A DNA stretch of 64,000 nucleotides, taken from assembly GCA_020637235.1 (NCBI GenBank), contig JACJWG010000015.1, forward strand, positions 2,557 through 66,556, in the 5' to 3' direction. Under the pieces are notes generated by a model. That model had not been told where the DNA came from and did no database searches. It saw nothing but the letters and a program-made list of their open reading frames with translations. Shown here piece after piece: positions 32,457 to 48,601 of this stretch. A program made the position numbers and the translations under genes. Source of the stretch: Acidimicrobiaceae bacterium. Lineage in GTDB: Bacteria > Actinomycetota > Acidimicrobiia > Acidimicrobiales > Ilumatobacteraceae. Position 1 is the stretch's first letter, and each line of letters begins with the position of its first letter.

Positions 32457-34433
32457 TCAGATGATGGTGAAGGTGAGCACACCGGAGTAGGTGCCGGCGT
32501 CGGCCGAGACCGGGATGAGCAGGTTGATGCGGGCATCCATCACAGCCATGCCGAGACCCGCACCAGCGTTCGCCTTCGACAGCGAGTTCGCCAGCGTGGT
32601 GTTGGTGCTGTTCGACGCATCACCCAGACCAGCCGTCGAGCTCGACGCGACCGGGAGGCGGGTGTCGCCCGCTGCCACCGTCATGTCGTAGCCGTCGAGG
32701 TTCGGGTTCGAGTCCCACGTCACCTCGGGCACCCAACCGAGCAGGTTGCCCGAGAAGCTGTCCGTGCCGCTGTTGAAGTTGCTCATCCGACCGTTCAACG
32801 TCCAGCCAGCATCGATGTCGCGGGTGTCCACGACCGTCAACTGAGCGATCCGACCCGTGCTGCGGAAGTACTGACCAGCCGACGGACCGCTCGTGACCAA
32901 CGAGGCGGTGCCGAGATCGATACCGCAGTTCGTGGCGTACGTCGCGATCGAGTCGCCGCTGCCGTCCACCGGGTACGGATACTGATCGAACAACCCATCA
33001 GGCTGACCAGCCGTCTCGGTCCCGACCGAGCCCACCCCGAACTCTCCCGAAACCTCCGGCAACGCATCCGCAACCGGAGCCGCGCCCATCGCAGCCGGCG
33101 GCACGACGTTCGGAGCCACGCCGGTGGGGTCGGCACCCGCAGTGGCCGCAAGGGCCGGCAACGTCGAGCCGAACAGGGCGTTCGAGTAGGCAGGGGCCGA
33201 ACCATGCACCCCACAGCGCTGCGTCAACACGAGCGCACCCTGCGGACGCACAACCGTGATGTCCTGCACCACGACCTGAGCGTTCACACAGGTGAACGTC
33301 GCCATGCCGGGAACCGTGACCTGACCGTTGCTGTAGTTGCCGACGACCTCGACCACGTAGCTGTCGGGTACCGCGCAGGCCACGCTGATGCTGTTGGTTG
33401 GTGCCGGGAGGGTTTGCGAGGCGATCGGCGCGGCCGAGCCGACGGGCACGAACGTGACCGTGTGGCTCACCAGCGTCGCGCCGCCCACCGGGCTACCGGT
33501 GCTCGGGGTCCACGACACCGTCACCGGGCTCGGACCGCTTGCAACTGCCACGACGGGGCGTGGGGCGAGCCAACCGTGGCACATGCAGACGGCCTGGGCG
33601 GCGGCAGCGGTGCTGCCGGCGTCGTTGGTCGCCGTGGCGACGATGTCGTACACGTCACCGTTGTTCAGACCGGTGAAACTGTAGGTGTACGGACCACCAG
33701 CCGGAATGCTCACCGGAGGCAGCGCCGGGCCAGCCGGGCTGGTCGGAGTCGCCGTCACCGTGTAACCCGTCACCGCAGGCGTCGCCGTCACCGGCGTGAT
33801 CTCACCCGTGATCTCCTGGAAACCGGCATCCGCGGTGAACACCGGAGCGGCCGGCTTGGTGCCGACGACCCAGTTGAGCGACGTGGTCGGGACCGTGTCC
33901 TTCACCGTGATCGTCGTCTCCCAGTACTTCTCCGTACCGGTCGCCGTCTTGTAGCACGCGAACCCGATCTTGTACTGACCATCGACCAGACCAGCAGCCA
34001 GGTTCGTGTTCAGGTTCAACGTCGACGTCCCCGAGATCGTGTACGGCGAGGCGGTGCCGATCGTCGTCTTCGCGATCTGCGGCGAACCCGTCGTCGAGTA
34101 CAACGGCTGGGCGATCGCACCAGCCGGCGCACCCGCCGGCAACTGCGGACCCGACGCAGTCCAGGTGAGCGTGCCCGCATCCACCGACGCCGACGTCAGA
34201 TACTGACCCCACCGGAAACCGTCCACCGAGGCATTCCCCGGGCAACCGTTGTTCGGCGCGGTCAAGGTCAACGAGAACGTCGTCGAGTTCGTACCCGAGT
34301 TCACGCTGATGTTCTGGCCCGGCGTCGCCGGCGTACCCGGAGGCAACGCCGACACACCCCCGACACCAACCACACTCGCCGACACCAGCGCCCCGACCAA
34401 CAGCCACCCCGACCTCGAGCCACGACCCACCAC
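32457..34433 (-). CDS. WxL-type surface protein, paralogue 1 (two-Cys N-domain + FN3-like repeats + C-terminal WxL-like domain)
   Basis: GTG at 34433 with GGAGGT 8 nt upstream, giving a signal-like N-terminus RGSRSGWLLVGALVSASVVGVGGVSA. The C-terminus has DTRDIDAGWTLNGRMSNF...GNLLGWVPEV...AGTYSGVLTFTII. Confidence 0.7.
   Translation of the reverse strand: MVGRGSRSGWLLVGALVSASVVGVGGVSALPPGTPATPGQNISVNSGTNSTTFSLTLTAPNNGCPGNASVDGFRWGQYLTSASVDAGTLTWTASGPQLPAGAPAGAIAQPLYSTTGSPQIAKTTIGTASPYTISGTSTLNLNTNLAAGLVDGQYKIGFACYKTATGTEKYWETTITVKDTVPTTSLNWVVGTKPAAPVFTADAGFQEITGEITPVTATPAVTGYTVTATPTSPAGPALPPVSIPAGGPYTYSFTGLNNGDVYDIVATATNDAGSTAAAAQAVCMCHGWLAPRPVVAVASGPSPVTVSWTPSTGSPVGGATLVSHTVTFVPVGSAAPIASQTLPAPTNSISVACAVPDSYVVEVVGNYSNGQVTVPGMATFTCVNAQVVVQDITVVRPQGALVLTQRCGVHGSAPAYSNALFGSTLPALAATAGADPTGVAPNVVPPAAMGAAPVADALPEVSGEFGVGSVGTETAGQPDGLFDQYPYPVDGSGDSIATYATNCGIDLGTASLVTSGPSAGQYFRSTGRIAQLTVVDTRDIDAGWTLNGRMSNFNSGTDSFSGNLLGWVPEVTWDSNPNLDGYDMTVAAGDTRLPVASSSTAGLGDASNSTNTTLANSLSKANAGAGLGMAVMDARINLLIPVSADAGTYSGVLTFTII
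33228..34357. repeat. 1.13-kb near-identical copy A of the duplicated tract (partner at 35446-36575, offset 2218)
   Basis: Identical embedded ORFs sit at offset 2218 (33388..33684 = 35606..35902; 34006..34206 = 36224..36424). I saw one mismatch (34275 vs 36493). Both tract boundaries are sharp. Confidence 0.85.
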
Positions 34434-34547
34434 GACACAGCACCTCCGACGAGAACCACTCCCCCACACCACAGCACCCGCACCGATCACCCGCCACCAC
34501 ACGACGATGGACGTTGGATGAACAACGGACCACACCCGAAAACGTGA

Positions 34548-34586
34548 CCGGCGGTGTGGGGCGCAAGGATCGCCCCACACCGCCGG
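34548..34586 (-). terminator. strong hairpin (16-bp perfect stem CCGGCGGTGTGGGGCG / CGCCCCACACCGCCGG, 7-nt loop) followed on the minus strand by a TTTT tract
   Basis: Read directly. Located about 65 nt downstream of the WxL paralogue-2 stop, between the two paralogues. Confidence 0.6.
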
Positions 34587-34650
34587 CCGGTGTCAGCACA
34601 TGACAACTGTGCGATTCAGATGTGAACCGTCACCGCTGCCTGATCGAGGA

Positions 34651-36657
34651 TCAGACGATGGTGAACGTGAGCACACCCTTGTAGGTGCCGGCGTCTGCCG
34701 AGACCGGGATCAACAGGTTGATCCGGGCATCCATCACAGCCATACCCAGACCTGCACCAACATTGGCCTTCGACAGCGAGTTTGCCAGCGTGGTGTTCGC
34801 CGGGTCCTGAGCGCCGAGACCGGCCGCCGAGGTCGACGCGACCGGCAAGCGCTCACCGCCCGCCGTGACGGTCATGTCATAGCCGTCGAGGTTCGGGTTC
34901 GAGTCCCACGTTACCTCGGGCACCCAACCGAGCAGGTTGCCCGAGAACTTCTCCGTCGCGGCGGTGTTGCCACCGAGGAAGAAGTCGCCCATCCGACCGT
35001 TCAACGTCCAGCCGGCGTCAGCGTCGCGGGTGTCCACGACGGTCAGCTGAGCGATCCGACCGGTGCTGCGGAAGTACTGACCAGCCGACGGACCGCTCGT
35101 GATCAGGCGAGCCTGCTCGAGAGTGATGCCGCAGTTGGTCGGGTAGGTGGCGATCGAGTCACCGTTGCCGTCCACCGGGTACGGGTACTGGTTGAACAGC
35201 ACGTCACCCGCACCAGGGGCGGTTTGCTGGCCGAGCGGGCCGACCGGGTTGGTCCCGAACGAGTTCGGGTCCGCAGCAGCGTCGTCACCCACCGGAGCCG
35301 TGCCCACCGCTGCCGGCGGCAGGATGTTCGGAGCCGTGCCGGTCGGATCGGCATCCGTGGTCGCCGTCAGAGCCGGGAACTGCGGGCCGAACAGGGCATT
35401 CGAGTACGCCGGGGCCGAGCCGTGCACGCCGCAGCGCTGGGTGAGCACGAGCGCACCCTGCGGACGCACAACCGTGATGTCCTGCACCACGACCTGAGCG
35501 TTCACACAGGTGAACGTCGCCATGCCGGGAACCGTGACCTGACCGTTGCTGTAGTTGCCGACGACCTCGACCACGTAGCTGTCGGGTACCGCGCAGGCCA
35601 CGCTGATGCTGTTGGTTGGTGCCGGGAGGGTTTGCGAGGCGATCGGCGCGGCCGAGCCGACGGGCACGAACGTGACCGTGTGGCTCACCAGCGTCGCGCC
35701 GCCCACCGGGCTACCGGTGCTCGGGGTCCACGACACCGTCACCGGGCTCGGACCGCTTGCAACTGCCACGACGGGGCGTGGGGCGAGCCAACCGTGGCAC
35801 ATGCAGACGGCCTGGGCGGCGGCAGCGGTGCTGCCGGCGTCGTTGGTCGCCGTGGCGACGATGTCGTACACGTCACCGTTGTTCAGACCGGTGAAACTGT
35901 AGGTGTACGGACCACCAGCCGGAATGCTCACCGGAGGCAGCGCCGGGCCAGCCGGGCTGGTCGGAGTCGCCGTCACCGTGTAACCCGTCACCGCAGGCGT
36001 CGCCGTCACCGGCGTGATCTCACCCGTGATCTCCTGGAAACCGGCATCCGCGGTGAACACCGGAGCGGCCGGCTTGGTGCCGACGACCCAGTTGAGCGAC
36101 GTGGTCGGGACCGTGTCCTTCACCGTGATCGTCGTCTCCCAGTACTTCTCCGTACCGGTCGCCGTCTTGTAGCACGCGAACCCGATCTTGTACTGACCAT
36201 CGACCAGACCAGCAGCCAGGTTCGTGTTCAGGTTCAACGTCGACGTCCCCGAGATCGTGTACGGCGAGGCGGTGCCGATCGTCGTCTTCGCGATCTGCGG
36301 CGAACCCGTCGTCGAGTACAACGGCTGGGCGATCGCACCAGCCGGCGCACCCGCCGGCAACTGCGGACCCGACGCAGTCCAGGTGAGCGTGCCCGCATCC
36401 ACCGACGCCGACGTCAGATACTGACCCCACCGGAAACCGTCCACCGAGGCATTCCCCGGGCAACCGTTGTTCGGCGCGGTCAAGGTCAACGAAAACGTCG
36501 TCGAGTTCGTACCCGAGTTCACGCTGATGTTCTGGCCCGGCGTCGCCGGCGTACCCGGAGGCAACGCCGACACACTCCCGGTGCCGAAGACGCTCACCGA
36601 CGCGGCGGCTGCGAGTGCCGTCGTGATGGCGAGCGAACGCTTCATGTTGATACGCAT
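34651..36657 (-). CDS. WxL-type surface protein, paralogue 2
   Basis: 668 aa with a classical signal peptide MRINMKRSLAITTALAAAASVSVFGTGSVSA. Same architecture as paralogue 1. The C-terminus is ...GWTLNGRMGDF...GNLLGWVPEV...AGTYKGVLTFTIV. Confidence 0.8.
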   Translation of the reverse strand: MRINMKRSLAITTALAAAASVSVFGTGSVSALPPGTPATPGQNISVNSGTNSTTFSLTLTAPNNGCPGNASVDGFRWGQYLTSASVDAGTLTWTASGPQLPAGAPAGAIAQPLYSTTGSPQIAKTTIGTASPYTISGTSTLNLNTNLAAGLVDGQYKIGFACYKTATGTEKYWETTITVKDTVPTTSLNWVVGTKPAAPVFTADAGFQEITGEITPVTATPAVTGYTVTATPTSPAGPALPPVSIPAGGPYTYSFTGLNNGDVYDIVATATNDAGSTAAAAQAVCMCHGWLAPRPVVAVASGPSPVTVSWTPSTGSPVGGATLVSHTVTFVPVGSAAPIASQTLPAPTNSISVACAVPDSYVVEVVGNYSNGQVTVPGMATFTCVNAQVVVQDITVVRPQGALVLTQRCGVHGSAPAYSNALFGPQFPALTATTDADPTGTAPNILPPAAVGTAPVGDDAAADPNSFGTNPVGPLGQQTAPGAGDVLFNQYPYPVDGNGDSIATYPTNCGITLEQARLITSGPSAGQYFRSTGRIAQLTVVDTRDADAGWTLNGRMGDFFLGGNTAATEKFSGNLLGWVPEVTWDSNPNLDGYDMTVTAGGERLPVASTSAAGLGAQDPANTTLANSLSKANVGAGLGMAVMDARINLLIPVSADAGTYKGVLTFTIV
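35446..36575. repeat. 1.13-kb near-identical copy B of the duplicated tract
   Basis: See 33228-34357. Confidence 0.85.
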
Positions 36658-36698: not shown

Positions 36699-37889
36699 TC
36701 AGAGCTGACCCGAGACGAGGTCACCGGTGATGGTGGTGACGCCGCAGTCGGGGGCGACGAGGAAGCCGAAGGTGTTGATGGTCGCGGTGGCCTGGCAGAT
36801 CTGCGAGGTCGGTCCGACGAACAGGTCCTTCAGGTCGGCGTTGCCGAAGCCGGTGATGATGCCGGTCGGGAACACGTTGTAGATGCGGCGACCGAACACC
36901 GAGTCGGCGAAGAACGTCGCGTTCGGGGCCAGGTTCGGGGCGGTGCCGGTGATCGGCGAACCGAGGTTGGTGCCCGAACCGTTGTTGCTCACCGAGCCGA
37001 TGAGCACCTCGGCCGGCGGGGTGGGCACGGCGACGCCGTTCGACTTGGCGATGTAGGCGCCAGCCGAGAAGCCGATCACGACCTGGCTGTTGGCCTCACC
37101 GGCCAGCGCGACGAGGGCGTCTCCGGCGGCCTTGAGCTCCACCGCGTTGTTCTCCTGCAGGCGGCCGTTCGGCTGGCTGCCGGCGTTGAGGCTGCGGCAC
37201 AGCGTGGTGGCGCTGGCCTCGTCGCTGACGCTCACACCTGCAGCGGTGTTCCAGAAGGCGTAGGTACCCGAGCCATCCTGGATGCCACAGGGCACCATGC
37301 GGACGCCACCGATCTCCTGCGGGCCCGTGGTGAACAGCGCGTCGAGCTCGGCGCGGGTCATCGTGGTGACCGGCGAACCGGCCGGACGATAGACCGCGAA
37401 GCTGATGCCGTCACGTGCGAACGGGATGTAGGTCAGCGCACCCGAGTTGCCCGAGGGACCCGACGACGAGCGGGCGAAGTCGACCAGACCCGAGACGTCG
37501 GCGATGCCGCACTCGGCGCTGCCGTAGCCGGTGCCGTCCTGCGCGCGGCTGAGCGCACGGCGGCCCTGGGTCGAACCGTTGGGGCGGGTGAAGGTCGGCG
37601 CACCGATCTTCGGGGTGACGCAGTTGTCGGCGGCGCCGGCCGGAGGCGTGGCGTCGAACGAGATGACCTGACGACCACCGGTCGCGGCCGAGCTCTGGAT
37701 CGGCGTGTACAGGATGCCGTTGGACTTGCCCGCCAGGGCGTTCAGCACGTCCTGGCTCGTGTCGGAGCCGAAGCCCGCAAGTGCGCCGAACTGGGCGGGG
37801 TCGGCGCTCGCCGATCCCACCATCGTGCTGGCTGCCAGCGCCGTGGCGACGAGGCCGAAGCCGAGCCGCTTCTTCTTGGAAATGAACAT
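36699..37889 (-). CDS. secreted PstS-fold (PBP-like type 2) substrate-binding-domain protein
   Basis: ATG at 37889 gives the signal peptide MFISKKKRLGFGLVATALAASTMVGSASA. GSDTSQDVLNALAG, FARSSSGPS, IPFARDGISFAV and GSGTYAFW resemble the phosphate-binding-protein superfamily. Confidence 0.65.
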   Translation of the reverse strand: MFISKKKRLGFGLVATALAASTMVGSASADPAQFGALAGFGSDTSQDVLNALAGKSNGILYTPIQSSAATGGRQVISFDATPPAGAADNCVTPKIGAPTFTRPNGSTQGRRALSRAQDGTGYGSAECGIADVSGLVDFARSSSGPSGNSGALTYIPFARDGISFAVYRPAGSPVTTMTRAELDALFTTGPQEIGGVRMVPCGIQDGSGTYAFWNTAAGVSVSDEASATTLCRSLNAGSQPNGRLQENNAVELKAAGDALVALAGEANSQVVIGFSAGAYIAKSNGVAVPTPPAEVLIGSVSNNGSGTNLGSPITGTAPNLAPNATFFADSVFGRRIYNVFPTGIITGFGNADLKDLFVGPTSQICQATATINTFGFLVAPDCGVTTITGDLVSGQL

Positions 37890-38178: not shown

Positions 38179-39654
38179 TCAGCCGAAACGACCGTTGACG
38201 TAGTCGAAGGTTCGCGGGTCCTGTGGGTCCTCGAACATCAGGTTGGTGGGGCCGTGCTCGACGATCACGCCTGGCGTGCCCTGCTCGGCGAGGAAGAACG
38301 CACAATGGTCCGACACGCGGTTCGCTTGTTGCATGTTGTGGGTGACGATCACGATCGTCACTTCGGAGACGATCTGCATGATCGTCTCCTCGATCCGTCG
38401 GGTCGACGTGGGGTCGAGTGCGGAGCACGGCTCGTCCATCAACAGCACACGCGGTGTCAGCGCCAGCGCCCGAGCGATGCAGAGTCGCTGTTGCTGGCCA
38501 CCGCTCAAGCCGCCACCTGGTTGCCTCAGTCGGTCCTTCACCTCGTTCCAGAGTCCGGCCTTGGTGAGGCACGACTCGACGATCTCGTCCTTCAGCGACG
38601 GGCTCGCCTTCACGCCGGTGAGCCGGAAGCTCGCGAGGACGTTGTCGTAGATCGACATCGCCGGGAACGGATTGGGTTTCTGAAACACCATGCCCACCTC
38701 CCGACGTGCGTCGGTGAGCTTGCGTTCCGGGTCGTAGATGTCGTGTCCGTCGACGAGGACCTGCCCGCCCATCTGGGCGCCGGGGATCATCTCGTGCATG
38801 CGGTTCAGGATCCGCAAGAACGTCGACTTGCCGCACCCGGACGGACCGATGAGCGCGGTCACCCTGCCCGGCTCCATCGTCAGCGACACACGGTCGAGCA
38901 CCAACCGAGAGCCGAACCACGCCGAGATGTTGCGGGCGTCGATGCCGGCGAGCGCCTGGTTCGGCGGTGTGAGGTCTGCCATCGACATCGCTTGTGAACG
39001 ACGGCCACGGCGGCCTGGCGTCTCCCCGCCGACGGACGCCGGCGCCAGCGGCCCCGGGGCGGTGCGTCGCGGCACCGTGTCGAACCCGAGATCCGGCTGG
39101 ACGACGAACGCACCGTTCGGCGGCGGCGGGGCGCCGAACACCAGCTCGTCGGTGAGCGGCAGCGAACCCGGCTCGTTCGTCACCGTGATGGGCGCGATCA
39201 GCGTCGGAGGCGGCGGCGCGAACTGGACCGCCGACGGCCACCCCGCCTCCGGCATCGAGACGGGTGCGGCGATGGCAGCCCGCTGATGGCGGACGTGCAC
39301 GCGGTGCATCCCGTCGAACAAGCCGCGGAACTCCGCGACACGGTCGGCCGGCACCGTGACGCCGAAGTCGGGGATGTCCGGCACCACCATGATCGACCAC
39401 GTGCCGTTGGATGCGTGCACGATGGCCTCGAGGTCGTCGAGGTGCCACGCCCACACGTCGTCGCCAACGTCGGCGACCACCCGCCGGTTCGTGACCGTCA
39501 CCTCGGCCGGCTGCAGCTCGACGACCATCGAGTCGGGATCGTCGGGCTGGCCGTGCACCACCTGGACGACCGCAGCGCCCGGGAACCGAGCGAAGGTGGT
39601 CTCTCCGGTGGGCCCGTCGGTCGGCGGGCGCATCGAGGGCGGATCGATGGTCAT
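38179..39654 (-). CDS. pstB: phosphate ABC transporter ATP-binding protein PstB with 222-aa N-terminal extension
   Basis: The C-terminal 269 aa (from MSMADL, codon at 38988) are canonical PstB: GPSGCGKSTFLR, MVFQKPNPFP, LSGGQQQRLCIARAL, LLMDEPCSALDP, THNMQQA. The upstream 222 codons are in the same frame without a stop and show the same strong third-position GC bias. Confidence 0.85.
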   Translation of the reverse strand: MTIDPPSMRPPTDGPTGETTFARFPGAAVVQVVHGQPDDPDSMVVELQPAEVTVTNRRVVADVGDDVWAWHLDDLEAIVHASNGTWSIMVVPDIPDFGVTVPADRVAEFRGLFDGMHRVHVRHQRAAIAAPVSMPEAGWPSAVQFAPPPPTLIAPITVTNEPGSLPLTDELVFGAPPPPNGAFVVQPDLGFDTVPRRTAPGPLAPASVGGETPGRRGRRSQAMSMADLTPPNQALAGIDARNISAWFGSRLVLDRVSLTMEPGRVTALIGPSGCGKSTFLRILNRMHEMIPGAQMGGQVLVDGHDIYDPERKLTDARREVGMVFQKPNPFPAMSIYDNVLASFRLTGVKASPSLKDEIVESCLTKAGLWNEVKDRLRQPGGGLSGGQQQRLCIARALALTPRVLLMDEPCSALDPTSTRRIEETIMQIVSEVTIVIVTHNMQQANRVSDHCAFFLAEQGTPGVIVEHGPTNLMFEDPQDPRTFDYVNGRFG

Positions 39655-39691: not shown

Positions 39692-40654
39692 TCACGTCAG
39701 GTTCGGGAGCAGTTTGGCGATCTCCGCGCTCGCGCTGATGCCGACGAGCGTGAGGGGCGGCGTGAACACGATCCACGCCTGCGCACGTCCCCAACGAGTC
39801 CATGCCCAGATCGCAAGGACGGAGAGCACGGTGAGCGCCTGCATCCACAACGCCAGCGCCCACACGGTGTCGGTCTGATTGCCCATGGCGCGTTCGTGCT
39901 CGCCGAGCGCAGCAGCACTGATGGCGCGTGCGTCTCCCACGACCGCTTGGCCGACGAGATCGGCGTCGACACGGAGCACGCCGCTCGACAGGAACGGTGA
40001 TCCATCGGCGGTGACGAGCATCAGTCGAGATCCGCCGGCAGGCGCTGCGGGCGGCAGAGGGTCCCCGGCTCGTCGCACGCCGATCACTGCGTACTCGAAG
40101 GTGCCTTGGCCGGTCGTCACGACGATCCGGTCGTCGACTCGGAGATCGCCGAGGTCGTCGAAGGGTCCGCCATAGGTGGAGGCCCGTCCGAACAGCACCG
40201 TCGATCCGACCTGTCCGGGAAGCTGCGTGTCCCGGCGGTGCCCCGGACCGTCGAACAGCACCTCGGCCGAGGTGCCTTCGGCGACGATCGTCTCGAGCCC
40301 GATCGCGCGGATCTCCATGTACGCCACCGGCGTTCCGTCGGCGAGCTCGACGCCGTCTGCGTCGGCTGGACCGATCGGGGCAGTGCCCTGGGCCAGCTCT
40401 GATCGGAACTCGTTGTACATGCGCGTCTGCGCAGAGCGCTGCTGGAGCCCGCTCACGAGACCGAGGTGCAGCAGCAGTGACACCGACAACACGAGGGCCA
40501 TGATCAGCATCGCCCGGACCAACTGAAGTCGAGGGCTGAGAGGCGGGATGCCGCTGCGTTCGTGCCGTTCGCTGACCGGCGCGAACCGCCGACGGCTCCC
40601 GCCCCTGCCTCCGCCGTCGCCACGGCCTCGGGCGACGGCCGTCGCGGCGGTCAT
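39692..40654 (-). CDS. sortase-fold protein lacking catalytic His and Cys (pseudo-sortase), extra C-terminal TM segments
   Basis: 320 aa. The ATG overlaps the upstream stop (ATGA). Sortase-like GPGHRRDTQLPGQVGSTVLFGRASTYGGPF (expected ..AGHR..) and RLMLVTADGSPF (expected ..TLxTC..). The conserved Arg is kept in LRVDADLVG. Confidence 0.65.
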   Translation of the reverse strand: MTAATAVARGRGDGGGRGGSRRRFAPVSERHERSGIPPLSPRLQLVRAMLIMALVLSVSLLLHLGLVSGLQQRSAQTRMYNEFRSELAQGTAPIGPADADGVELADGTPVAYMEIRAIGLETIVAEGTSAEVLFDGPGHRRDTQLPGQVGSTVLFGRASTYGGPFDDLGDLRVDDRIVVTTGQGTFEYAVIGVRRAGDPLPPAAPAGGSRLMLVTADGSPFLSSGVLRVDADLVGQAVVGDARAISAAALGEHERAMGNQTDTVWALALWMQALTVLSVLAIWAWTRWGRAQAWIVFTPPLTLVGISASAEIAKLLPNLT

Positions 40655-41643
40655 GCCGATCCGACCGGGATGACGCGGATCGGGCGTGCGAGCAGCACCG
40701 CCATGCGCCCGAACACCACGAGCAGCACCGACCAGACGATGATGCGGATTGTGTGCGACGGCCCGGTCTCCGGGATCGTGCCGCCGGAGCCGGAGCCCGT
40801 TCCGGAGCTGCCGACCGAGAAGCCGCCGCTGGACGACGACGCTGCCGCCGCGCTCGCGACCTGCGTCGTCGAGGTCGTCGTGCTCCCGGCGACGCTGGTG
40901 CTGGTGGTGGAGCCGCCGGCCACCGTCGTCGACGTCGTCGTCGACCCACCGGCGACGGTCGTCGACGTCGTCGAGCTCGTGGACGTGGTGCTGGTGGTGC
41001 TCGACGTCGTACTGGTGGTCGTGGTGGTCGGAGCGATGGCGGCTGCGGTCCACGTGAACTTGGCCGGCCCGCCGGCGTCGGCATCCGGGGTGACGGTGAA
41101 CTGCATCTGCCAGTAGCGCTCGGTCGTGCCCGCCTTCGTGCAGGCGTAGCCGATCTTGTACGTGCCGGCCGTGAGCGCGTTGTCCGGGTACTGGGCGAAG
41201 TTCAGCTCGACGGTGCCGATGATCATGCCCTTGGGCTCGGTGCCGGTGAGCTTGTTCACCTGCGGTGTACCGCCGGTCGCGCTCAGCAGCGGGAAGGCCT
41301 TCGATCCTGCGGGCGCAATCGGTCCGCTCGCGTTGAACTTCAGCACGGCGACGTCGACGTCGTCGGACACCAAGAAGTTGTGCCAGCGATAGCCGTCGAC
41401 CGCCGAGTCGCCCGGACAGACGTTGTTCGGCGCGGCGAGCGCCAACGAGAACGGCGTGGAGCTGTTCCCGGACTCCACCGAGATCGACAGCCCCTCGGTC
41501 GCCGGAGCACCCGCGACGAGTGGTTCGGCCGATGCGCCGAACGCGCCGACGACGCTGATCGCGAGCATCGCTGCGGAGAGGACGGCACCGCCGCGCGCTG
41601 CAGCGAGCAACGCCCGTCGGCGGGCGAAGGAATTCGTGTTCAT
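40651..41643 (-). CDS. secreted surface protein: two-Cys N-domain + Thr/Ser stalk + IPETG sorting signal
   Basis: 330 aa with a signal peptide. Domain: NNVCPGDSAVDGYRWHNFL...GTYKIGYACTK...RYWQMQFTV. The C-terminus is IPETG + IIVWSVLLVVFGRMAVLLA + RPIR. Confidence 0.75.
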   Translation of the reverse strand: MNTNSFARRRALLAAARGGAVLSAAMLAISVVGAFGASAEPLVAGAPATEGLSISVESGNSSTPFSLALAAPNNVCPGDSAVDGYRWHNFLVSDDVDVAVLKFNASGPIAPAGSKAFPLLSATGGTPQVNKLTGTEPKGMIIGTVELNFAQYPDNALTAGTYKIGYACTKAGTTERYWQMQFTVTPDADAGGPAKFTWTAAAIAPTTTTTSTTSSTTSTTSTSSTTSTTVAGGSTTTSTTVAGGSTTSTSVAGSTTTSTTQVASAAAASSSSGGFSVGSSGTGSGSGGTIPETGPSHTIRIIVWSVLLVVFGRMAVLLARPIRVIPVGSA

Positions 41644-42419
41644 CGGAGTGCTCCTGCGCGAGACGATGTGGACGAAGGGGGGTTCTGTGAACGGCGGCGG
41701 ACCATCCACCAACCGCCGCCAAGGGCGATCGCCAGCGCCGCGGCCCCGGCGATGTAGGGCCAGCGGCGAGACTCGGGCTCGAGGGTCTGCGCCGCGATCG
41801 CGTCGGCGGGAGCATCGACAGCGGTCCAGGTGAACTGCGCCGGCTCGTCGTCGGGATCGGCCACGATCTCGATCTCGGCGTCCCAGTACCTGGCGGTCTG
41901 GCGGAAGTACGTGCACGCGACCCCGATGCGGTAGCGGCCTGGTGCCACCGCATCGGGTGGGAAGATGGTGAAGGTCAGCTCGGGCAGCAGTGGGATCCGC
42001 GCCTCCATGCCCGGGCCGGCGTTCACCGGCAGCAGCTGATGGGCGTACGGCTTGGTGTCGAAGGCGAAGAGGGGGAACTGCGTGCCCTCCGGGCCGATCA
42101 CGCCGTACTCGACCTGCCCCGGATCGTGCGACGCCGGGATCAGGAAGGTCTGCACGCGCCAGTCGTCGTTGGCGCTGTCGCCAGGACAGGTGGACCCTTC
42201 GGGCAGGACCAGCGTGTACGGCGTCGCACTCCCTCCGCTCGCGAGCGGAGTGCCGTCTGGTGCGGCGATCACGACCGACCCCTCGTCGACCGCTGGTCCC
42301 ACGTCCTCCGGCACGAGGCCCCCGGCCGCCGCCGCACTCGCGACTGCCAGACCACCGATCGTGCCGAGGATCGCGGAACGGCCCCACCGCCTGCGAGTTC
42401 GCATGATGTCACCGCTCAT
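41640..42419 (-). CDS. secreted/anchored protein with divergent two-Cys N-domain and C-terminal TM
   Basis: 259 aa. STCPGDSANDDWRVQTFL...GRYRIGVACT...RYWDAEIEI...AQFTWTAV, then WPYIAGAAALAIALGGGWWMVRRR. ATGA overlaps on both sides. Confidence 0.7.
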   Translation of the reverse strand: MSGDIMRTRRRWGRSAILGTIGGLAVASAAAAGGLVPEDVGPAVDEGSVVIAAPDGTPLASGGSATPYTLVLPEGSTCPGDSANDDWRVQTFLIPASHDPGQVEYGVIGPEGTQFPLFAFDTKPYAHQLLPVNAGPGMEARIPLLPELTFTIFPPDAVAPGRYRIGVACTYFRQTARYWDAEIEIVADPDDEPAQFTWTAVDAPADAIAAQTLEPESRRWPYIAGAAALAIALGGGWWMVRRRSQNPPSSTSSRAGALR

Positions 42420-45325
42420 GACCTGACTCCCGTGAGTTCGAGGACAACATCGTCTTCCTCCACATCGTCGAACAGGTCGTCGTCGTCCATCGGTGGTGCA
42501 GTCGCCTTCCGGGCACGTTTGGTGATCTCGAGCGCCACGTAGGCCGATGCGATGGCGAGCACCCCGATCAGGACGATCAGGTACCGGTTGAGGCTCAGCT
42601 TCATCCCTGGCGTGGTGGGGGTCGCGGCGATGGTGGTCGACGGCGGAACGGCGTCTGCCTCCGGCGTCGTGGTCGCCGTCGTCTCGTCGACGGTCGCGGT
42701 GTTCTCGGTCGGCTCCGCGGACGTCGGTGGCGCAGACTCGACCGTGGTCTCCTCGGTCACGGCGGAGGATGAGCCGGCTGACGAGCCCGAGCTCGAGCTG
42801 CTGCCGACCGAGGTCGGGCGAGCGGAGCTCGTGCCGCCGCTCGTGCCACCGGTGGCGGAGGTCGATGTGCTGCCATTGCTCGACACCCCCTGTCGGCGCG
42901 CGTTCGTCACGCCCGGCGACGCGCCGACGACGACCGTGGTGGTGCTGGCAGCCGTGGTGGTGGTTGCCGCCGGCTCGGCCGGCACGAGCGAACTCGGGTC
43001 CTTGATCAAGGCCACCGTGGCTGATGCGTTCGTCCGGAGCGCGGCCGGAAGCGGCACATAGCCGGCCGGCAGATCCCCGAAATCGAAGCCGGGGTTTTGA
43101 CCCGCGCCGGTCGCGAACTCGAGAAAGGCGGCGTACTGGCTGCGTGCAGTCGCGTCCAGTGACAGGGGCTTCACGGTTGCGTAGGTGATCATGGTCAACG
43201 GGTAGGCGCCGTCGACGAGCGCTGCGAAGTCGGGCTCGAGGACGGTGGCGACGGACTTCGGCTTCATCGCCGCCGCACCCTTGGTCAGCCCGGCGGCGTC
43301 CGGTGCGATGAACGTGCGCGCCGCACCATTGTCGCCGGCACGACTGAGCCGCGCCGTCTGCAGTCCGAACCGTGCCGCCGAGGCGGTGTCGGTCAACGTC
43401 ATGATGGCTCGCGAGCCCGGAGCCTGGGGCACGTCACGCTTCCAGACGTCGCTGGGCACGATCGCAAACGGATTGCTGACGATCTTCGCCTCGTCGTTGC
43501 CCATCCGCGTGCTCCGCGCGCCGTCGATCAAGCCCCGAGTGTTCGGCATCCAGTCGGTGCCACACAGAGGTGTGGGCGTGACCGATCCGCCCGGACCCAT
43601 GTTCGGTGCCTGGTAGCAGTACGGGTCGGCCTTGGGAAACGAATTGGGGATCGGCGAGCCGAAGGCAACACCGTTGGTGTTGGTCGAGGCGTCTGTCGAG
43701 TAGGCCGGATTGACGCGCATCCCGTACTCGTCCGGCTCGCCGGCGAGCCACCGCGCCGCCTCGGGATCGGAGAAGATCCATTCCCAGACGAGTTGTGCTG
43801 CATCGGAGGTGCCCGGCGGCAACAGCAGACCCCCGAGCAGCCTGCCGCTGGCCTGCAGCAGCTCGAACTCGGGGTTGAAGCGGAGGAAGTCGGGATCCCC
43901 GCCGAGCGCGACCGGATTTTCGGCGGCCCACTCGTAGCCGGGCGGCTGCTGATTCCCGACGGTGATCTGAGATCGATACGACTGGGTGAGCAGTTTCGCG
44001 ACGATGCGCGGCGTCAGGTTGATCGCCCCCACCCGCACCCCTCGGAGAGCTTGCGCCTCCGGGGGCGCGTTCGTCTTGGGGATGCGCTCGATGTTGAAAC
44101 CGATCGTGATGCCCGAGAGCGAGACCGGCGAGTACACCGCAGGGCTCTGCGCACTGCTCGATGCAGCGTTCAGCGGTCGCGACACGATCGCCATCCCCGG
44201 CCCGCCTGCCACCGACGACGAGATCTGCTGTCGAGCCGTCGCATCGGCGATGGTCGCGAACGAGTACGGCGGCAGGTCGCCCTGTGAGCACAACGCCGGT
44301 TGCCAGCTGGCGATCGCACTGATCGCCACCTCGGAGCCGACGATGCGCCGCTCCTCGGCACCGATCTCGCACGGCGAATCGACGGGCAAGAACTCGAGCG
44401 GGATCGCGATGCGGTTCTTCCATGCCGCCGGGGTGAGCGGCGACGAGTACACACCGAACGAGTCCGCCTCGTCCTCGAAGTTGCCCATGCCCTCGTTCTC
44501 GTCCTCGGGCTCTCCTCTCGGCACGATCACCAGCCAGCACTTCGGCACCTTCTTCGTACCGTCGCCCACGGGCTGCACCTGCTGACCGCAGCCGAGCCCG
44601 GACGACTCACGCCCGGTGTTCACCTGGAACAGCTCGCTGCCCCGACCGTCCGAGCCGGTTCTCGCTGCGGCGATCTCGTTGGTCTTGACGATGTCGTAGT
44701 ACGGGTTGAGCCAGAAGTTGCCGCCCTGCACCGCCGGGTTGAACGTCGGGTCGTCCTGCACCTCGATCACCTGACCGTTGACCGCTCGGAAGGGCATCCA
44801 GATGTTGCTCGTGCGTGGGTCGACGACGCCGATGTCCTTCAGCTCGTCACCGTTCGGCAGGGTGGTTTTGCTGATGATGCGGTACAGCGAGAACCCGTTC
44901 GGATACGTGGTGCCGAACACACCGCCAGGCTGGCCCGCCGTCGCTCCTTGCTGGCACTGCTCGGGCGGCGGCCCAGGGTTGGACGCGACGGTCCCGTCGT
45001 CGTCGCCCCAGCACTGGAACATCTGGAGGTAGTGCGCGCCGAAGTCACCCGGGCCTTGCCGGGTCTCGGTGCCTCCCTTCCACGACACGGACACCGCTTG
45101 GTTGGCGAGGTTCCGCGTCTGGTTGACGGTGATGGTGAGATCGTCGAACGTGCCTCGGCCCTTCACGGTGACCGCCGAGTCGGTCAGCGGGAGATCGGTG
45201 TCCGTGCCCGCAGACCCGGCGACGGGTTCGGCCGAGCTCGAGCCTCCCGGCGACAGCAGGGTGACGGCGAGCAGGACCGCGGGACCGATGAGCAGCCACG
45301 CACCTCGGATCGTGCTCCGCCTCAT
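42416..45325 (-). CDS. 969-aa secreted protein: novel N-terminal half + PstS-fold (PBP-like) C-terminal half + Ser/Thr stalk + TM + acidic tail
   Basis: The ATG at 45325 overlaps the pstS stop (ATGA). Signal MRRSTIRGAWLLIGPAVLLAVTLL. PBP-like stretch RIVGSEVAISAIASWQ ... AYPLTMITYATV ... GDLPAGYVPLP. C-terminal YLIVLIGVLAIASAYVAL, then DDDDLFDDVEEDD. Confidence 0.7.
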   Translation of the reverse strand: MRRSTIRGAWLLIGPAVLLAVTLLSPGGSSSAEPVAGSAGTDTDLPLTDSAVTVKGRGTFDDLTITVNQTRNLANQAVSVSWKGGTETRQGPGDFGAHYLQMFQCWGDDDGTVASNPGPPPEQCQQGATAGQPGGVFGTTYPNGFSLYRIISKTTLPNGDELKDIGVVDPRTSNIWMPFRAVNGQVIEVQDDPTFNPAVQGGNFWLNPYYDIVKTNEIAAARTGSDGRGSELFQVNTGRESSGLGCGQQVQPVGDGTKKVPKCWLVIVPRGEPEDENEGMGNFEDEADSFGVYSSPLTPAAWKNRIAIPLEFLPVDSPCEIGAEERRIVGSEVAISAIASWQPALCSQGDLPPYSFATIADATARQQISSSVAGGPGMAIVSRPLNAASSSAQSPAVYSPVSLSGITIGFNIERIPKTNAPPEAQALRGVRVGAINLTPRIVAKLLTQSYRSQITVGNQQPPGYEWAAENPVALGGDPDFLRFNPEFELLQASGRLLGGLLLPPGTSDAAQLVWEWIFSDPEAARWLAGEPDEYGMRVNPAYSTDASTNTNGVAFGSPIPNSFPKADPYCYQAPNMGPGGSVTPTPLCGTDWMPNTRGLIDGARSTRMGNDEAKIVSNPFAIVPSDVWKRDVPQAPGSRAIMTLTDTASAARFGLQTARLSRAGDNGAARTFIAPDAAGLTKGAAAMKPKSVATVLEPDFAALVDGAYPLTMITYATVKPLSLDATARSQYAAFLEFATGAGQNPGFDFGDLPAGYVPLPAALRTNASATVALIKDPSSLVPAEPAATTTTAASTTTVVVGASPGVTNARRQGVSSNGSTSTSATGGTSGGTSSARPTSVGSSSSSGSSAGSSSAVTEETTVESAPPTSAEPTENTATVDETTATTTPEADAVPPSTTIAATPTTPGMKLSLNRYLIVLIGVLAIASAYVALEITKRARKATAPPMDDDDLFDDVEEDDVVLELTGVRS

Positions 45326-47295
45326 GTCGGATGCTCCACGGCGAAGTAGCGCCACGCCATGGCAGGGACCACGACCACCGCCATCATCAGCAGCACGATC
45401 AGCACGATCAGCGCCAGTGAGCCGTTCCAACCCGACCCGTTCCGAAGTGTCGCGGTCACCACCGGCCCAGCGGACGCGACCTGAGCTGCGTTCGCAGCCT
45501 GCTGGCCCACCTGCGCACTGGCGCCACCGCAGAGTCCTGTGTCCGGGTCGCATGTCGTCGGGTCGATCACACCGCCGGCGGTGAGCGTGGGATCGACCAC
45601 GGGCGCCCCAGTGACCGCATCGACCGGTGCGCCGCTCGCGTCGAGCACCGTGTTCACCGTGGCGCCGCCAGCAGTCGGGGTCGCGCCGCCGGCAGTCGGG
45701 GTCGCACCGCCAGCAGTCGGCGTCGCACCGCCAGCAGTCGGCGTCGCACCGCCAGCAGTCGGCGTCGCACCGCCAGCAGTCGGCGTCGCACCGCCAGCAG
45801 TCGGCGTCGCACCGCCAGCAGTCGGCGTCGCGGCCCCACCGGCCGCCGGTGACGATGCTCCGCCAGCCGGATTGGCGCTGCTCGCCACCGATCCGCTTCC
45901 GGCTGCCGGCGCGGCTGCCTGTGCACTGGGGTTCACCGCTGTCGGGACGTTCGCCAACCCGGCGGTGCCGTTCGGGCACTGCAGTGGGCCCTGCTTGTCG
46001 CAGGCCTGCGGCTGTGGTGCACGTTCGGCGAGCAGGTTGCCGCCATCGGGTGAGAACGTCGGGTTCTTGCACTGCGTGATGTCGATGTCCTGCACCTGGA
46101 CCCCAGGGATCTTGCGGATCTGCTCGAAACTGGCCTCCACGAGGTTCACCGGCATCGGCGAATAGCCGAGTGATGCCGACGACTGCTGTGCCTGACACAT
46201 CGCGTAGTACGCGAAGTCGCCGAGTGTTCGCCCCTTCGCCTCGTTGAACTGGCCACCGACCTTCGTCGGCAGGATCAGGTACGAGTACGACGACAGCTGG
46301 TAGCTGCGGGGATCGGTGTCGGTGTAGACGCCGGAGAGGTCCTGCGTCAGATACGTCTGCGGATTGCTCTCGTTGGTGTTGATCTTCGCCTTCAGCAACG
46401 ACACGGCGACGTTCTCCGGAGTGGGCTCCACGTAGTAGCCGGCAGCGTTGAGCAGCTTCACCACCGGGAACTGAGTGCCGAGCGCGTACGAGTAGTTCAC
46501 GTATCCGATCGCACCCTCGGCGAAGCTCTGGCTCACGTATTGCGACACGCCGACATCGCCCGATTGGGAGATCATCCCGCTGATCGTCGGGTAGAACGAC
46601 GTCGGGCCGCACGCCGGCGCCCGCCCCGAACGCTCGCAGAAGCTCTGCCAGACGGCTGGGTGGCGGTCGATCATCCACATCGTGAGTTGCTGTGTCGAAC
46701 CGGAGCCCTCCGCTCGTACCACCGGCACGATGTTGCGCGCCGGCATGTTCAGGCCAGGGTTGTCCGCTTGAATCGCCGGGTCGTTCCACGTCTTGATCGC
46801 GCCTGTGAAGATCTTCGCGATGTTCTCGCCCGAGAGGCGCAGGTTCGTCACCTGCGCGCCGTTGATCCGGAGGTTGTACATGAATGCTGTGCCGCCGGCG
46901 GTGATCGGCATGTACGCGTAGCTTCCGGGAGCCGGCCGCTCGGGTGCGGAGCCGTCCTCCGGTTCGAACTGGAACGGGATGTCGGATGCTGCGAAATCGA
47001 CCGTGCCGTTGAGGAAGTTCTTGCGGCCGGCGGTGGAGCCCGTGGGGTTGTAGTCGATGGTGATGCCGAACTGCTGCACGTTGACACGCATTGCGTCGAT
47101 GGCGTTCGCCGACCACGAGGATCCCTCGCCGGAGATGCGTTGGTACTCCTGGGCGACGGCGGCGGGCGTCGATGCCGAAGCGACGCACAACGATGCGATC
47201 AACAGGCTCCACACACCGATCGCAGCCGACGCGAGGCTGCGCGAGCGCCGCGGCCGGACGCGGGGACCCGCCGGAGAGTCGGTCGAGGGATTCAC
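45322..47295 (-). CDS. pstS: PstS-family phosphate-binding protein with (GGATPTA)8 stalk and C-terminal TM anchor
   Basis: GTG at 47295 with a GAGGAAG RBS. ISGEGSSWSANAIDAM, GSTAGRKNFLNGTVDFAASDIP, RAEGSGSTQQ and SYSYLILP match actinobacterial PstS. The protein is 657 aa because of the repeat stalk and the TM segment LALIVLIVLLMMAVVVVPAMAW. Confidence 0.8.
   Translation of the reverse strand: MNPSTDSPAGPRVRPRRSRSLASAAIGVWSLLIASLCVASASTPAAVAQEYQRISGEGSSWSANAIDAMRVNVQQFGITIDYNPTGSTAGRKNFLNGTVDFAASDIPFQFEPEDGSAPERPAPGSYAYMPITAGGTAFMYNLRINGAQVTNLRLSGENIAKIFTGAIKTWNDPAIQADNPGLNMPARNIVPVVRAEGSGSTQQLTMWMIDRHPAVWQSFCERSGRAPACGPTSFYPTISGMISQSGDVGVSQYVSQSFAEGAIGYVNYSYALGTQFPVVKLLNAAGYYVEPTPENVAVSLLKAKINTNESNPQTYLTQDLSGVYTDTDPRSYQLSSYSYLILPTKVGGQFNEAKGRTLGDFAYYAMCQAQQSSASLGYSPMPVNLVEASFEQIRKIPGVQVQDIDITQCKNPTFSPDGGNLLAERAPQPQACDKQGPLQCPNGTAGLANVPTAVNPSAQAAAPAAGSGSVASSANPAGGASSPAAGGAATPTAGGATPTAGGATPTAGGATPTAGGATPTAGGATPTAGGATPTAGGATPTAGGATVNTVLDASGAPVDAVTGAPVVDPTLTAGGVIDPTTCDPDTGLCGGASAQVGQQAANAAQVASAGPVVTATLRNGSGWNGSLALIVLIVLLMMAVVVVPAMAWRYFAVEHPT
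45659..45826 (-). repeat. eight tandem 21-nt units (GTCGCACCGCCAGCAGTCGGC) encoding GGATPTA repeats
   Basis: Read directly. Six units are identical and the first two are slightly diverged. Confidence 0.9.
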
Positions 47296-47299
47296 GTCG

Positions 47300-48601
47300 T
47301 CACTTCCTCTGCAAGATGGCGGGGAGACGCCCGGCTCGCTCGCCGAGCTGTGGTGCCTCGGGCACCGACTCGGGCTCGATGCGGGCGAGGTCGGCCAGCG
47401 ACTGCGCCGCAGCCCGGCGAGCTTGACGCGTCGACTGGCGGCCTGCCGGCCGGCCGCCGAGCACGCGGGCGATCGTGAACAGCACGAGCACCATCACCAT
47501 GAGCACCGAGGCCGCCCCGAAGCCGCGAGCGATCTGGTTCGGTTCGGGTGAGCTGACGAGTTTGAACGCCGTCACCGGCAGCGACGCCATCGGGTTGTTG
47601 GTCGGATCGAGGTTGAGCGAGGTGGCGTACCCAGAGGTCAACAGCACCGGAGCCGTCTCGCCGATGCCTCTGGCCACCCCGAGGATCACCGAGGTCGTCA
47701 GACCGGATCGTGCCGTCGGGAGGACCACGTGCCAGACGGTCCGCCACCGCGGTGCGCCGAGGGCGGCAGCAGCCTCCCGCAGGCTGCCGGGCACCAGCCG
47801 CAGCACCACGTCCGCCGAGCGGATGATGATCGGCAGCATCATGATCGAGATCGAGATCGATGCTGCGAGACCGCTTCGTGGGAAGCCCAGCACGAGCACC
47901 CAGGTGGCGAAGATGAACAGACCTGCGACGATCGACGGCAGCGCGGTCATCGCTGTCACGATCGTGCGGACCGCATTCACCGCGCGGCTCTTGCTCTCGG
48001 TCAGGAACACCGCGCACGTGACCGCCAGCGGCACGGTGAGCACGAGGCTGATCGCTGTCATGATCAGCGTTCCGACGATCGCGTGCAGCACGCCGCCACT
48101 CGTCAACGGTTGTTCCGGACCGGTGACGCGGAGGTCCTCGGTGTAGAAGTTGAGGTGACGCAACGCGGTCCAGCCGCGCTTGAACGTGAAGAAGATCACC
48201 GAGCCGAGCGCCACGAGCGCGACGGCAGCGGCAGCCGTCAGGAGCACCGTCATCACCCGGTCGATCACTGCAGGTCGCGACTCGGTGAACGACGACATCA
48301 CGGCATACGTGACGACGAAGAGGACGAACGCGGTGACTGCGAACCCGAGACGACCGTGCAGCGGCGTGAGACGGCCGAAGATCAGCGCCGCCATGCAGAT
48401 GCTGCTGAGACCGACACCAGCCAACATCTGCGCGTCGCGCTTCGAGAACGACGAGATCGATCGCGGCACCGCCACTCCGCGGGGCGGCGAGTCACGCAGA
48501 GGCAACGAGGTCCTGCGCTGCGCTCGCGCGGACGGAGCCAGGACTGCGGCGGCGGGCGCCGGAGAGGTCTCGACCTCCCCTGACCAGACGGTGGAGGTCA
48601 T
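47300..48601 (-). CDS. pstA: phosphate ABC transporter permease PstA (long N-terminal extension)
   Basis: 433 aa. GGVLHAIVGTLIMTAISLVLTVPLAV, TALPSIVAGLFIF, GIGETAPVLLTSG. The ATG overlaps the pstC stop (ATGA). Confidence 0.85.
   Translation of the reverse strand: MTSTVWSGEVETSPAPAAAVLAPSARAQRRTSLPLRDSPPRGVAVPRSISSFSKRDAQMLAGVGLSSICMAALIFGRLTPLHGRLGFAVTAFVLFVVTYAVMSSFTESRPAVIDRVMTVLLTAAAAVALVALGSVIFFTFKRGWTALRHLNFYTEDLRVTGPEQPLTSGGVLHAIVGTLIMTAISLVLTVPLAVTCAVFLTESKSRAVNAVRTIVTAMTALPSIVAGLFIFATWVLVLGFPRSGLAASISISIMMLPIIIRSADVVLRLVPGSLREAAAALGAPRWRTVWHVVLPTARSGLTTSVILGVARGIGETAPVLLTSGYATSLNLDPTNNPMASLPVTAFKLVSSPEPNQIARGFGAASVLMVMVLVLFTIARVLGGRPAGRQSTRQARRAAAQSLADLARIEPESVPEAPQLGERAGRLPAILQRK

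Follow-up and report, generated by a model that had tools for sequence, protein, structure and literature searches.

A sortase-superfamily protein without the catalytic cysteine and histidine is a conserved component of a second, specialised Pst-type gene cluster in Actinomycetota

The 64,000-nucleotide stretch of DNA analysed here (the window) comes from an Acidimicrobiaceae bacterium of the Ilumatobacteraceae (assembly GCA_020637235.1, contig JACJWG010000015.1) and encodes, at 39692–40654 on the minus strand, a 320-residue sortase homologue that contains no cysteine. We found that this pseudo-sortase is a genuine member of the sortase superfamily that lacks the catalytic Cys/His pair, and that it combines this loss with a new C-terminal transmembrane (TM) hairpin and a new genomic role. 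By synteny, the pseudo-sortase is a fixed, selected component of a second, specialised Pst-type gene cluster across Actinomycetota; phosphate transport by this cluster is predicted from the sequences of its genes. To our knowledge, sortases are treated as uniformly catalytic, and in the full-text literature we found no account of catalytically dead sortases or of this gene cluster. NCBIfam holds no model dedicated to the family, and its members carry the database names “class E sortase”, “sortase A” and “LPXTG-site transpeptidase”. The pseudo-sortases thus appear to be a large, conserved and undescribed actinobacterial family.

The gene starts with an ATG at 40654–40652 that shares the sequence ATGA with the TGA stop of the upstream gene (GCATGACC), and it stops at 39694–39692; a pstB-like gene begins 37 nt downstream. 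The NCBI annotation places the start at Met49, giving a 272-residue product (compared with L002:10001-10819). We favour the 320-residue start because the motif PPLSPRLQL.RA is conserved upstream of Met49 and because of the ATGA overlap. The protein has an Arg-rich cytoplasmic tail followed by an N-terminal TM helix (residues ~41–68; 40451–40534), an extracytoplasmic sortase-fold domain (residues ~100–240; 39935–40357) and a C-terminal Trp-rich TM hairpin (residues ~261–319; 39698–39874) that ends in an invariant PN motif. An AlphaFold2 (AF2) model built with 42 homologues, with a mean predicted local distance difference test score (pLDDT) of 82, has a helix at residues 41–89, a β domain at 109–233 and two further helices at 261–288 and 290–319. 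A first-pass annotation, made by reading the DNA without database searches, had given the coordinates, strand and frame of this gene correctly, and its proposals of ATGA coupling to an upstream gene whose product carries IPETG and of extra C-terminal TM helices are likewise confirmed.

The sortase homology proposed in that annotation is borne out by profile, sequence and structure comparisons. The Pfam family PF04203 matches at 51.3 bits, above its gathering score of 26.6, through profile positions 1–83 of 125 only. The class E model (NF033747) ranks first in NCBIfam with 65.8 bits, below its cutoff of 160, and HMMER matches PDB sequences of sortase classes E, D and C. All 50 of the Foldseek matches listed for the AF2 model are sortases, with classes D, E and C represented and TM-scores normalised to the target (TMt) of 0.5–0.79; the top match is the class D sortase 4d70 at 0.79, and the eight-stranded sortase β-barrel is present. 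Divergence is much greater in the C-terminal half of the domain, which gives no match when searched alone against the PDB with phmmer.

The catalytic His is replaced by Arg157 (codon CGG, 40184–40186), as the first-pass annotation had read it. Arg157 occupies the catalytic His column in all alignments, namely phmmer and profile alignments to 5go5, 5uus and 4d70, hhalign against classes E and D, and MAFFT E-INS-i. The domain contains a single His, His139 in GPGH, whose equivalent in classes D and E is the His of GxGHY, a residue without a catalytic role. Four class E and D sortases from plasmid records served as alignment references for hhalign. In both its global and local modes, hhalign mis-aligned the C-terminal half against a small class E alignment owing to the class E β6/β7 insertion, and we took the columns of this half from MAFFT E-INS-i, HMMER against class D and hhalign against SrtA.

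The counterpart of the TLxTC motif reads LMLVTAD. Ala216 (GCC, 40009–40007) stands at the catalytic Cys in hhalign against S. aureus SrtA and in HMMER against class D, and Asp217 stands there in MAFFT and HMMER against class E and a Bifidobacterium breve sortase (Ala216–Asp217 codons, 40004–40009). The register is thus uncertain by one residue, which is immaterial because the whole protein is without cysteine. The proposed Cys-to-Ala change therefore holds as a loss of the catalytic Cys, with Ala or Asp in its column depending on the alignment. Retention of the third triad residue, Arg, had also been proposed and is not secure. The canonical catalytic Arg column on β8 is Val226 in MAFFT, and Arg228 lies two residues further on the same strand face; all close homologues have it, but roughly half of the wider family has Tyr, Phe or Leu at this position. 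In addition, Arg140 replaces the class E-specific Tyr of the GHY motif, and this position is R, L, Q, E or K across the family. In Streptomyces coelicolor SrtE1 the equivalent residue, Y229 in the β3/β4 loop, contacts position P3 of the LAXTG substrate (PMC5148588). With the Cys/His pair gone, thioester-based cysteine transpeptidation is impossible for the pseudo-sortase.

We examined the conservation of these substitutions in 120 close homologues (55–67% identity) and 150 diverse ones, 270 in all. The latter are the best 150 clusters of a profile search through 1.84 billion cluster representatives, clustered at 50% identity, which recovered a wider family of 444 clusters at E<1e-30. All 121 sequences of the close set, the query included, have Arg at position 157, and the counts are R147/K4 in the diverse set with the query, so that Arg or Lys is found in 270/270 homologues. 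Position 216 is A, S or T and never Cys in the close set, and A, S, T, V or G in the diverse set. None of the 270 homologues has a Cys at columns 213–220, no domain column holds a conserved Cys among the best 150 clusters, and 92 of the 120 close homologues contain no Cys anywhere. By conservation, Arg157 and Asp230 rank within the top 18 positions in the wider family. This suggests that the former active site was remodelled and not simply given up, possibly around an Arg–Asp pair. Pairwise ratios of nonsynonymous to synonymous substitution rates (dN/dS) are 0.06–0.23 in 12 pairs, which indicates purifying selection. The substitutions are thus a family trait shared by relatives and not a sequencing error, as had been argued from the single sequence. 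In one metagenome-assembled member (L042:4-831) the catalytic His column does hold a His (IMGHRAIYGGPF), yet the second motif reads LLLVTADG and there is no Cys; this member may be an intermediate or a reversion.

A scan of GTDB species representatives found the family at no fewer than 542 loci and in at least 542 species. The best 80 of these loci lie in Acidimicrobiia (Ilumatobacteraceae and Microthrix-like), Streptomyces, Planotetraspora, Microbacterium, Cryobacterium, Arthrobacter, Micromonospora, Plantactinospora and Pseudonocardiaceae. The same site residues occur in the clades compared, which are Acidimicrobiia, Microbacteriaceae, Micromonosporaceae and Streptomyces: H139, R140, R141, D142, Q148, R157, R210, T215, A216, D230 and A231. 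The family is absent from plasmids as searched with tblastn, where the matches were canonical sortases only. The loss of catalytic residues is the sole feature that would fit a decaying pseudogene, a sequencing error or a mis-assembly. These explanations are refuted by the intact open reading frame in hundreds of species, the 444 clusters, the dN/dS values and the conserved synteny.

The genes from ~26.8 to 50.9 kb of the window all lie on the minus strand. The order is pstC, pstA, PstS*, a ~970-residue protein, a 259-residue protein, an IPETG protein, the pseudo-sortase, a pstB-like gene, a ~396-residue protein and two paralogues with fibronectin type III (fn3) domains, with an FPRTG protein further on. 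The pstC gene (48598–49620; TIGR02138, 236.7 bits, cutoff 196.45) and the pstA gene (47300–48466; TIGR00974, 223 bits, cutoff 193.45) both pass their equivalog cutoffs. The PstB and PstS models are the best matches for the pstB-like gene (38179–39654; TIGR00972, 331.7 bits) and for PstS* (45322–47295; 176.8 bits), both under the respective cutoffs of 343.2 and 205. PstS* is a 657-residue protein with a PBP_like_2/PstS domain, a stalk of eight GGATPTA repeats and a C-terminal TM anchor. At the DNA level the stalk is a 21-nt tandem repeat (8.3 copies, 96% identity, 45658–45831), whose copy number may vary between strains and so set the length of the stalk. The pstB-like ATPase has an N-terminal extension of ~235 residues (38950–39654) that has no Pfam match; the product annotated by NCBI is shorter, at 406 residues. 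We regard the extension as a conserved extra cytoplasmic domain and not as a mis-called start, because it is present in 50 related loci (jackhmmer).

The ~970-residue protein (42416–45343), a conserved ‘hypothetical’ that belongs to what we call the ~900-residue family, consists of an N-terminal β domain, a PstS-fold domain, a disordered stalk and a C-terminal TM helix. Its model (pLDDT 76.5), in which the disordered stalk spans residues 792–913, matches Mycobacterium tuberculosis PstS3 in Foldseek with a TMt of 0.79 and PstS-1 with an E value of 9e-11; its sequence profile matches PstS-1 at E 0.003. The secreted ~396-residue protein (p398 family; 36699–37889) has PBP_like_2 proteins as its counterparts in distant clusters. 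The cluster thus encodes up to three PstS-fold receptors, each predicted to bind phosphate.

This gene neighbourhood is conserved. Across 82 related loci searched with jackhmmer, the pstB-like gene is found in 80, the p398 family in 71, the ~900-residue family in 65, PstS* in 63 and pstC/pstA in 51, the last count being limited by the reach of the flanks. Among six distant representatives sampled for gene context, five have Pst-type neighbours (PBP_like_2, BPD_transp_1, ABC_tran) and the sixth contig is too short to tell. Three distant clusters share the order pstC–pstA–PBP_like_2–~900-residue gene–pseudo-sortase–PBP_like_2, with a 4-nt overlap between the ~900-residue gene and the pseudo-sortase start, and none of these three has an LPXTG gene. 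In one related genome (L009), a canonical lipoprotein pstS and pstC follow immediately downstream of the cluster, and because this canonical pair is also present, we take the cluster to be an additional, specialised Pst system.

The proteins encoded just upstream of the pseudo-sortase differ among clades at their C-termini. In the window, the upstream gene (40651–41706) encodes a surface protein with a Thr/Ser-rich stalk and an IPETG sorting signal followed by a TM segment (IIVWSVLLVVFGRMAVLLARPIRV; 40654–40776), whose sequence is conserved across Acidimicrobiia loci. In Acidimicrobiia the gene at this place always ends in [LIVF]-[P/A/V/S/T]-x-T-G, followed by the conserved TM segment W..LLLVFGRMA.LL.RP; position 2 of the signal is Pro in about half of the cases, and Ala and Val are common. 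The TM segments of ordinary sorting signals are not conserved in sequence. The unusual conservation here points to the upstream protein as a dedicated partner. In Microbacteriaceae and Micromonosporaceae the upstream gene ends in an [FL]PW[LI]L-type TM anchor, and in Streptomyces its product has a terminal Ig-like domain and is without an anchor. We found no LPXTG-type neighbour in Streptomyces, Microbacteriaceae, Micromonosporaceae or the distant metagenomic members examined, and the site substitutions in these groups are identical.

The anchors of the two stalked receptors are conserved more widely. The PstS* anchor follows the pattern P(-8)-[TV]-x-[LV]-x4-G-W-x3-Q-T-L-M-L-L...P(+22)...R(+27) from Acidimicrobiia to Streptomyces and Microbacteriaceae, and some clades have LPTTL or LPFTL here, with Leu instead of Gly after LPxT. 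The anchor of the ~900-residue protein, R[FY]AVP..G...KRPRRR, is conserved in Acidimicrobiia and Streptomyces. Both proteins have the architecture of sortase substrates, with a signal peptide and a functional domain followed by a stalk rich in Pro and Thr that would span the wall, a juxtamembrane motif, a TM helix and a basic tail, but no cleavable LPXTG. Neither in the window nor in the 10-kb surroundings of the 82 related loci did we find an active sortase. A published Ilumatobacter genome has 13 LPXTG-motif open reading frames (PMC3910706), and on this ground sortase-type anchoring is probably present in the group.

We tentatively favour the view, to which we give somewhat less than an even chance, that the pseudo-sortase, without catalysis, receives or organises stalked PstS-like proteins at PstCAB through their C-terminal anchors. 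The dead sortase would keep the ancestral recognition of a juxtamembrane peptide and the adjoining TM helix without cutting. It would thereby hold the stalked, C-terminally anchored phosphate receptors non-covalently beside PstC, PstA and PstB, forming a complex with a role in phosphate capture. In clusters of the Ilumatobacteraceae type it may also hold the xPxTG proteins encoded just upstream, and the conserved Trp-rich TM hairpin could supply contacts within the membrane. Several observations weigh against this view. Because the partner anchors differ among clades, no one recognition motif can be claimed. In the widest sample of the family, the conservation of TM2 is only moderate. Arg157 and Asp230, the most conserved residues of the old active site, could be merely a structural salt bridge. 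The T-G of the Acidimicrobiia neighbours is invariant, and this points to genuine cleavage by an active sortase of some kind, for which a pure tether would have no need.

A more specific form of the receptor view is that enzyme and substrate degenerated together. A dedicated sortase of stalked PstS-type receptors would have lost its Cys and His while the LPXTG of its substrates decayed to an uncleavable LPxT-L or P-x-x-L...GW, and the dead enzyme would now bind the anchors non-covalently and so assemble, around PstCAB, an apparatus of several receptors that spans the wall and captures phosphate. We rate this history as possible but on the unlikely side. If true, it would make the protein the first pseudo-sortase with a defined role, and one that is widespread in Actinomycetota including Streptomyces.

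The first-pass annotation had suggested a catalytically inert sortase acting as a gatekeeper beside sorting-signal proteins. Inertness and purifying selection stand, as does the Phi-x-x-T-G neighbour in Acidimicrobiia. A gatekeeper or decoy would bind the xPxTG signal of its neighbour and either shield it from a housekeeping sortase or hand it over to one. Such a role would suit the dedicated, conserved TM segment of the Acidimicrobiia upstream gene and its frequent translational coupling, and class E sortases do recognise LAXTG and LPXTG (PMC5148588). It is plausible for the Acidimicrobiia subset only, as Streptomyces, Microbacteriaceae, Micromonosporaceae and distant members have the same site residues without an xPxTG neighbour, and the lack of an active sortase in the window and near the 82 loci also counts against it. 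For the family we regard gatekeeping as doubtful. The conserved role is instead tied to the Pst transporter complex, because the invariant partners are Pst-type transporter genes and C-terminally anchored PstS-fold proteins.

The same context, a gene always within a Pst-type operon, could also be read as a sign that the pseudo-sortase itself binds anions. Its groove, relined with arginines (R140, R141, R157, often R158, and R228), might bind phosphate, a phosphoester or a polyanionic wall polymer and act as an extra capture or gating element of the transporter. R141 and R157 are nearly invariant, and R140 takes the place of the substrate-contacting class E Tyr (PMC5148588). This proposal draws on composition and context only, however, and R140 (Leu or Gln) and R228 (Tyr or Phe) vary in the wider family, the conserved Asp142 and Asp230 could neutralise arginines through salt bridges, and the cluster already has three PstS-fold phosphate binders; we consider it no likelier than gatekeeping. 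Still less probable, and in our judgement very improbable, is that the protein remains an enzyme that processes xPxTG-like anchors with a non-cysteine nucleophile such as the conserved Thr/Ser215. Of 151 sequences, 147 have Thr or Ser at position 215, conservation of the former active site is strong, and the T-G of the Acidimicrobiia neighbours is invariant. Yet Thr215 is the ancestral Thr of the TLxTC motif, the catalytic column lacks a conserved His, no general base can be recognised, and many clades have no T-G partner. We also know of no precedent for a sortase that uses a non-cysteine nucleophile.

Among known sortases, those of class E (S. coelicolor SrtE1, PDB 5CUW; S. avermitilis SrtE, 5GO5; Corynebacterium diphtheriae SrtF, 5UUS) are the top NCBIfam class and belong to the same phylum. 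They share with the pseudo-sortase the N-terminal TM helix, the β-barrel and the motifs G-x-G-H...T..PG..G and (Y/F)GxPF. The pseudo-sortase differs from them in having Arg for His, no Cys and Arg140 for Tyr, and in being without the long β6/β7 insertion. Its C-terminal TM hairpin of two helices is an addition, and its gene lies in a pst operon, whereas class E sortases lie beside chaplin-type substrates. The best structural and profile match is instead a class D sortase, Clostridium perfringens SrtD (4D70; profile E 1e-15), which is likewise compact and without the class E insertion. SrtD, however, is active with a His/Cys/Arg triad, comes from Firmicutes and has no C-terminal TM hairpin.

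Extra C-terminal TM helices are also found on catalytically intact actinobacterial sortases, because a 402-residue sortase on the B. breve megaplasmid pMP7017 (L087:526-1734), apparently active with GHR and TLTTC intact, carries a long Trp-rich multi-TM C-terminal extension. This extension has no detectable sequence homology with the pseudo-sortase hairpin.

The dedicated sortase and exosortase systems (class GN sortase TIGR03784; PEP-CTERM/exosortase) resemble the present arrangement in that an enzyme homologue adjoins proteins with a conserved C-terminal signal that includes a TM segment. Their enzyme is intact, whereas the pseudo-sortase has lost its catalytic residues, and a cleavable motif is missing from most of the partner anchors. 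Inactive rhomboids (iRhoms and Derlins) are dead relatives of membrane proteases that have kept client binding. They offer a parallel as dead homologues of an enzyme that recognises TM-adjacent segments, kept under purifying selection, with clients that are bound or organised and not cut, as we infer for the pseudo-sortase; their fold and kingdom are unrelated. Compared with canonical PstSCAB, the cluster has pstC and pstA that pass the equivalog cutoffs, with pstB and PstS just below. It differs in its order (pstC–pstA–pstS*...pstB), in a PstS* that is carried on a stalk with a C-terminal TM helix and is not a lipoprotein, and in the addition of two further PstS-fold proteins and the pseudo-sortase.

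These findings would add a pseudoenzyme branch to the sortase superfamily, a phylum-wide and selectively maintained family without the nucleophile, and would correct hundreds of annotations that name its members as sortases or transpeptidases. They also bring to light a so far undescribed elaboration of the Pst system in Gram-positive actinobacteria, in which two of the three PstS-fold receptors stand on long stalks and are anchored by a C-terminal TM helix. This elaboration bears on phosphate scavenging across a thick wall by Streptomyces and by the Acidimicrobiia that are abundant in fresh water and soil. As the family is present in cultivable, genetically tractable genera (Streptomyces, Microbacterium, Micromonospora and Arthrobacter), the hypotheses above are directly testable.

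The remaining genes of the region include a paralogous family. A ~160-residue N-terminal domain with the motif SG.SST.FSL.L.APNN.CPGDS..DGYRW, for which Pfam has no family, is common to five proteins encoded at 26813–28129, 32460–34592, 34651–36657, 40651–41706 and 41640–42419 (hhalign probability 100 between three families). They differ at the C-terminus, which is an xPxTG signal, a plain TM segment, or fn3 and β domains. The 259-residue protein (41640–42419) is a C-terminally anchored paralogue of the N-terminal domain of the IPETG protein (hhalign probability 100). Most of its Acidimicrobiia homologues (L003–L051) end in a cytoplasmic (T)LSKE(S/P) after the TM segment, which the copy in the window apparently lacks. 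The protein at 26813–28129 has the same N-terminal domain, a poly-Thr stalk and an FPRTG signal with LLWAVVFVAFGRLAVV; its stalk includes 20 consecutive Thr codons at 27139–27199 (TCG/ACC-type repeat, coding strand). Pfam and NCBIfam hold no family for the IPETG protein or for the 259-, ~398- and ~970-residue proteins. Upstream of pstC, a gene at 49620–50876 that may belong to the cluster encodes a 418-residue Arg/Glu-rich predicted coiled coil with a C-terminal TM helix and EEMRRAEEMRRV repeats, which contains 18- and 72-nt tandem repeats at 50062–50349.

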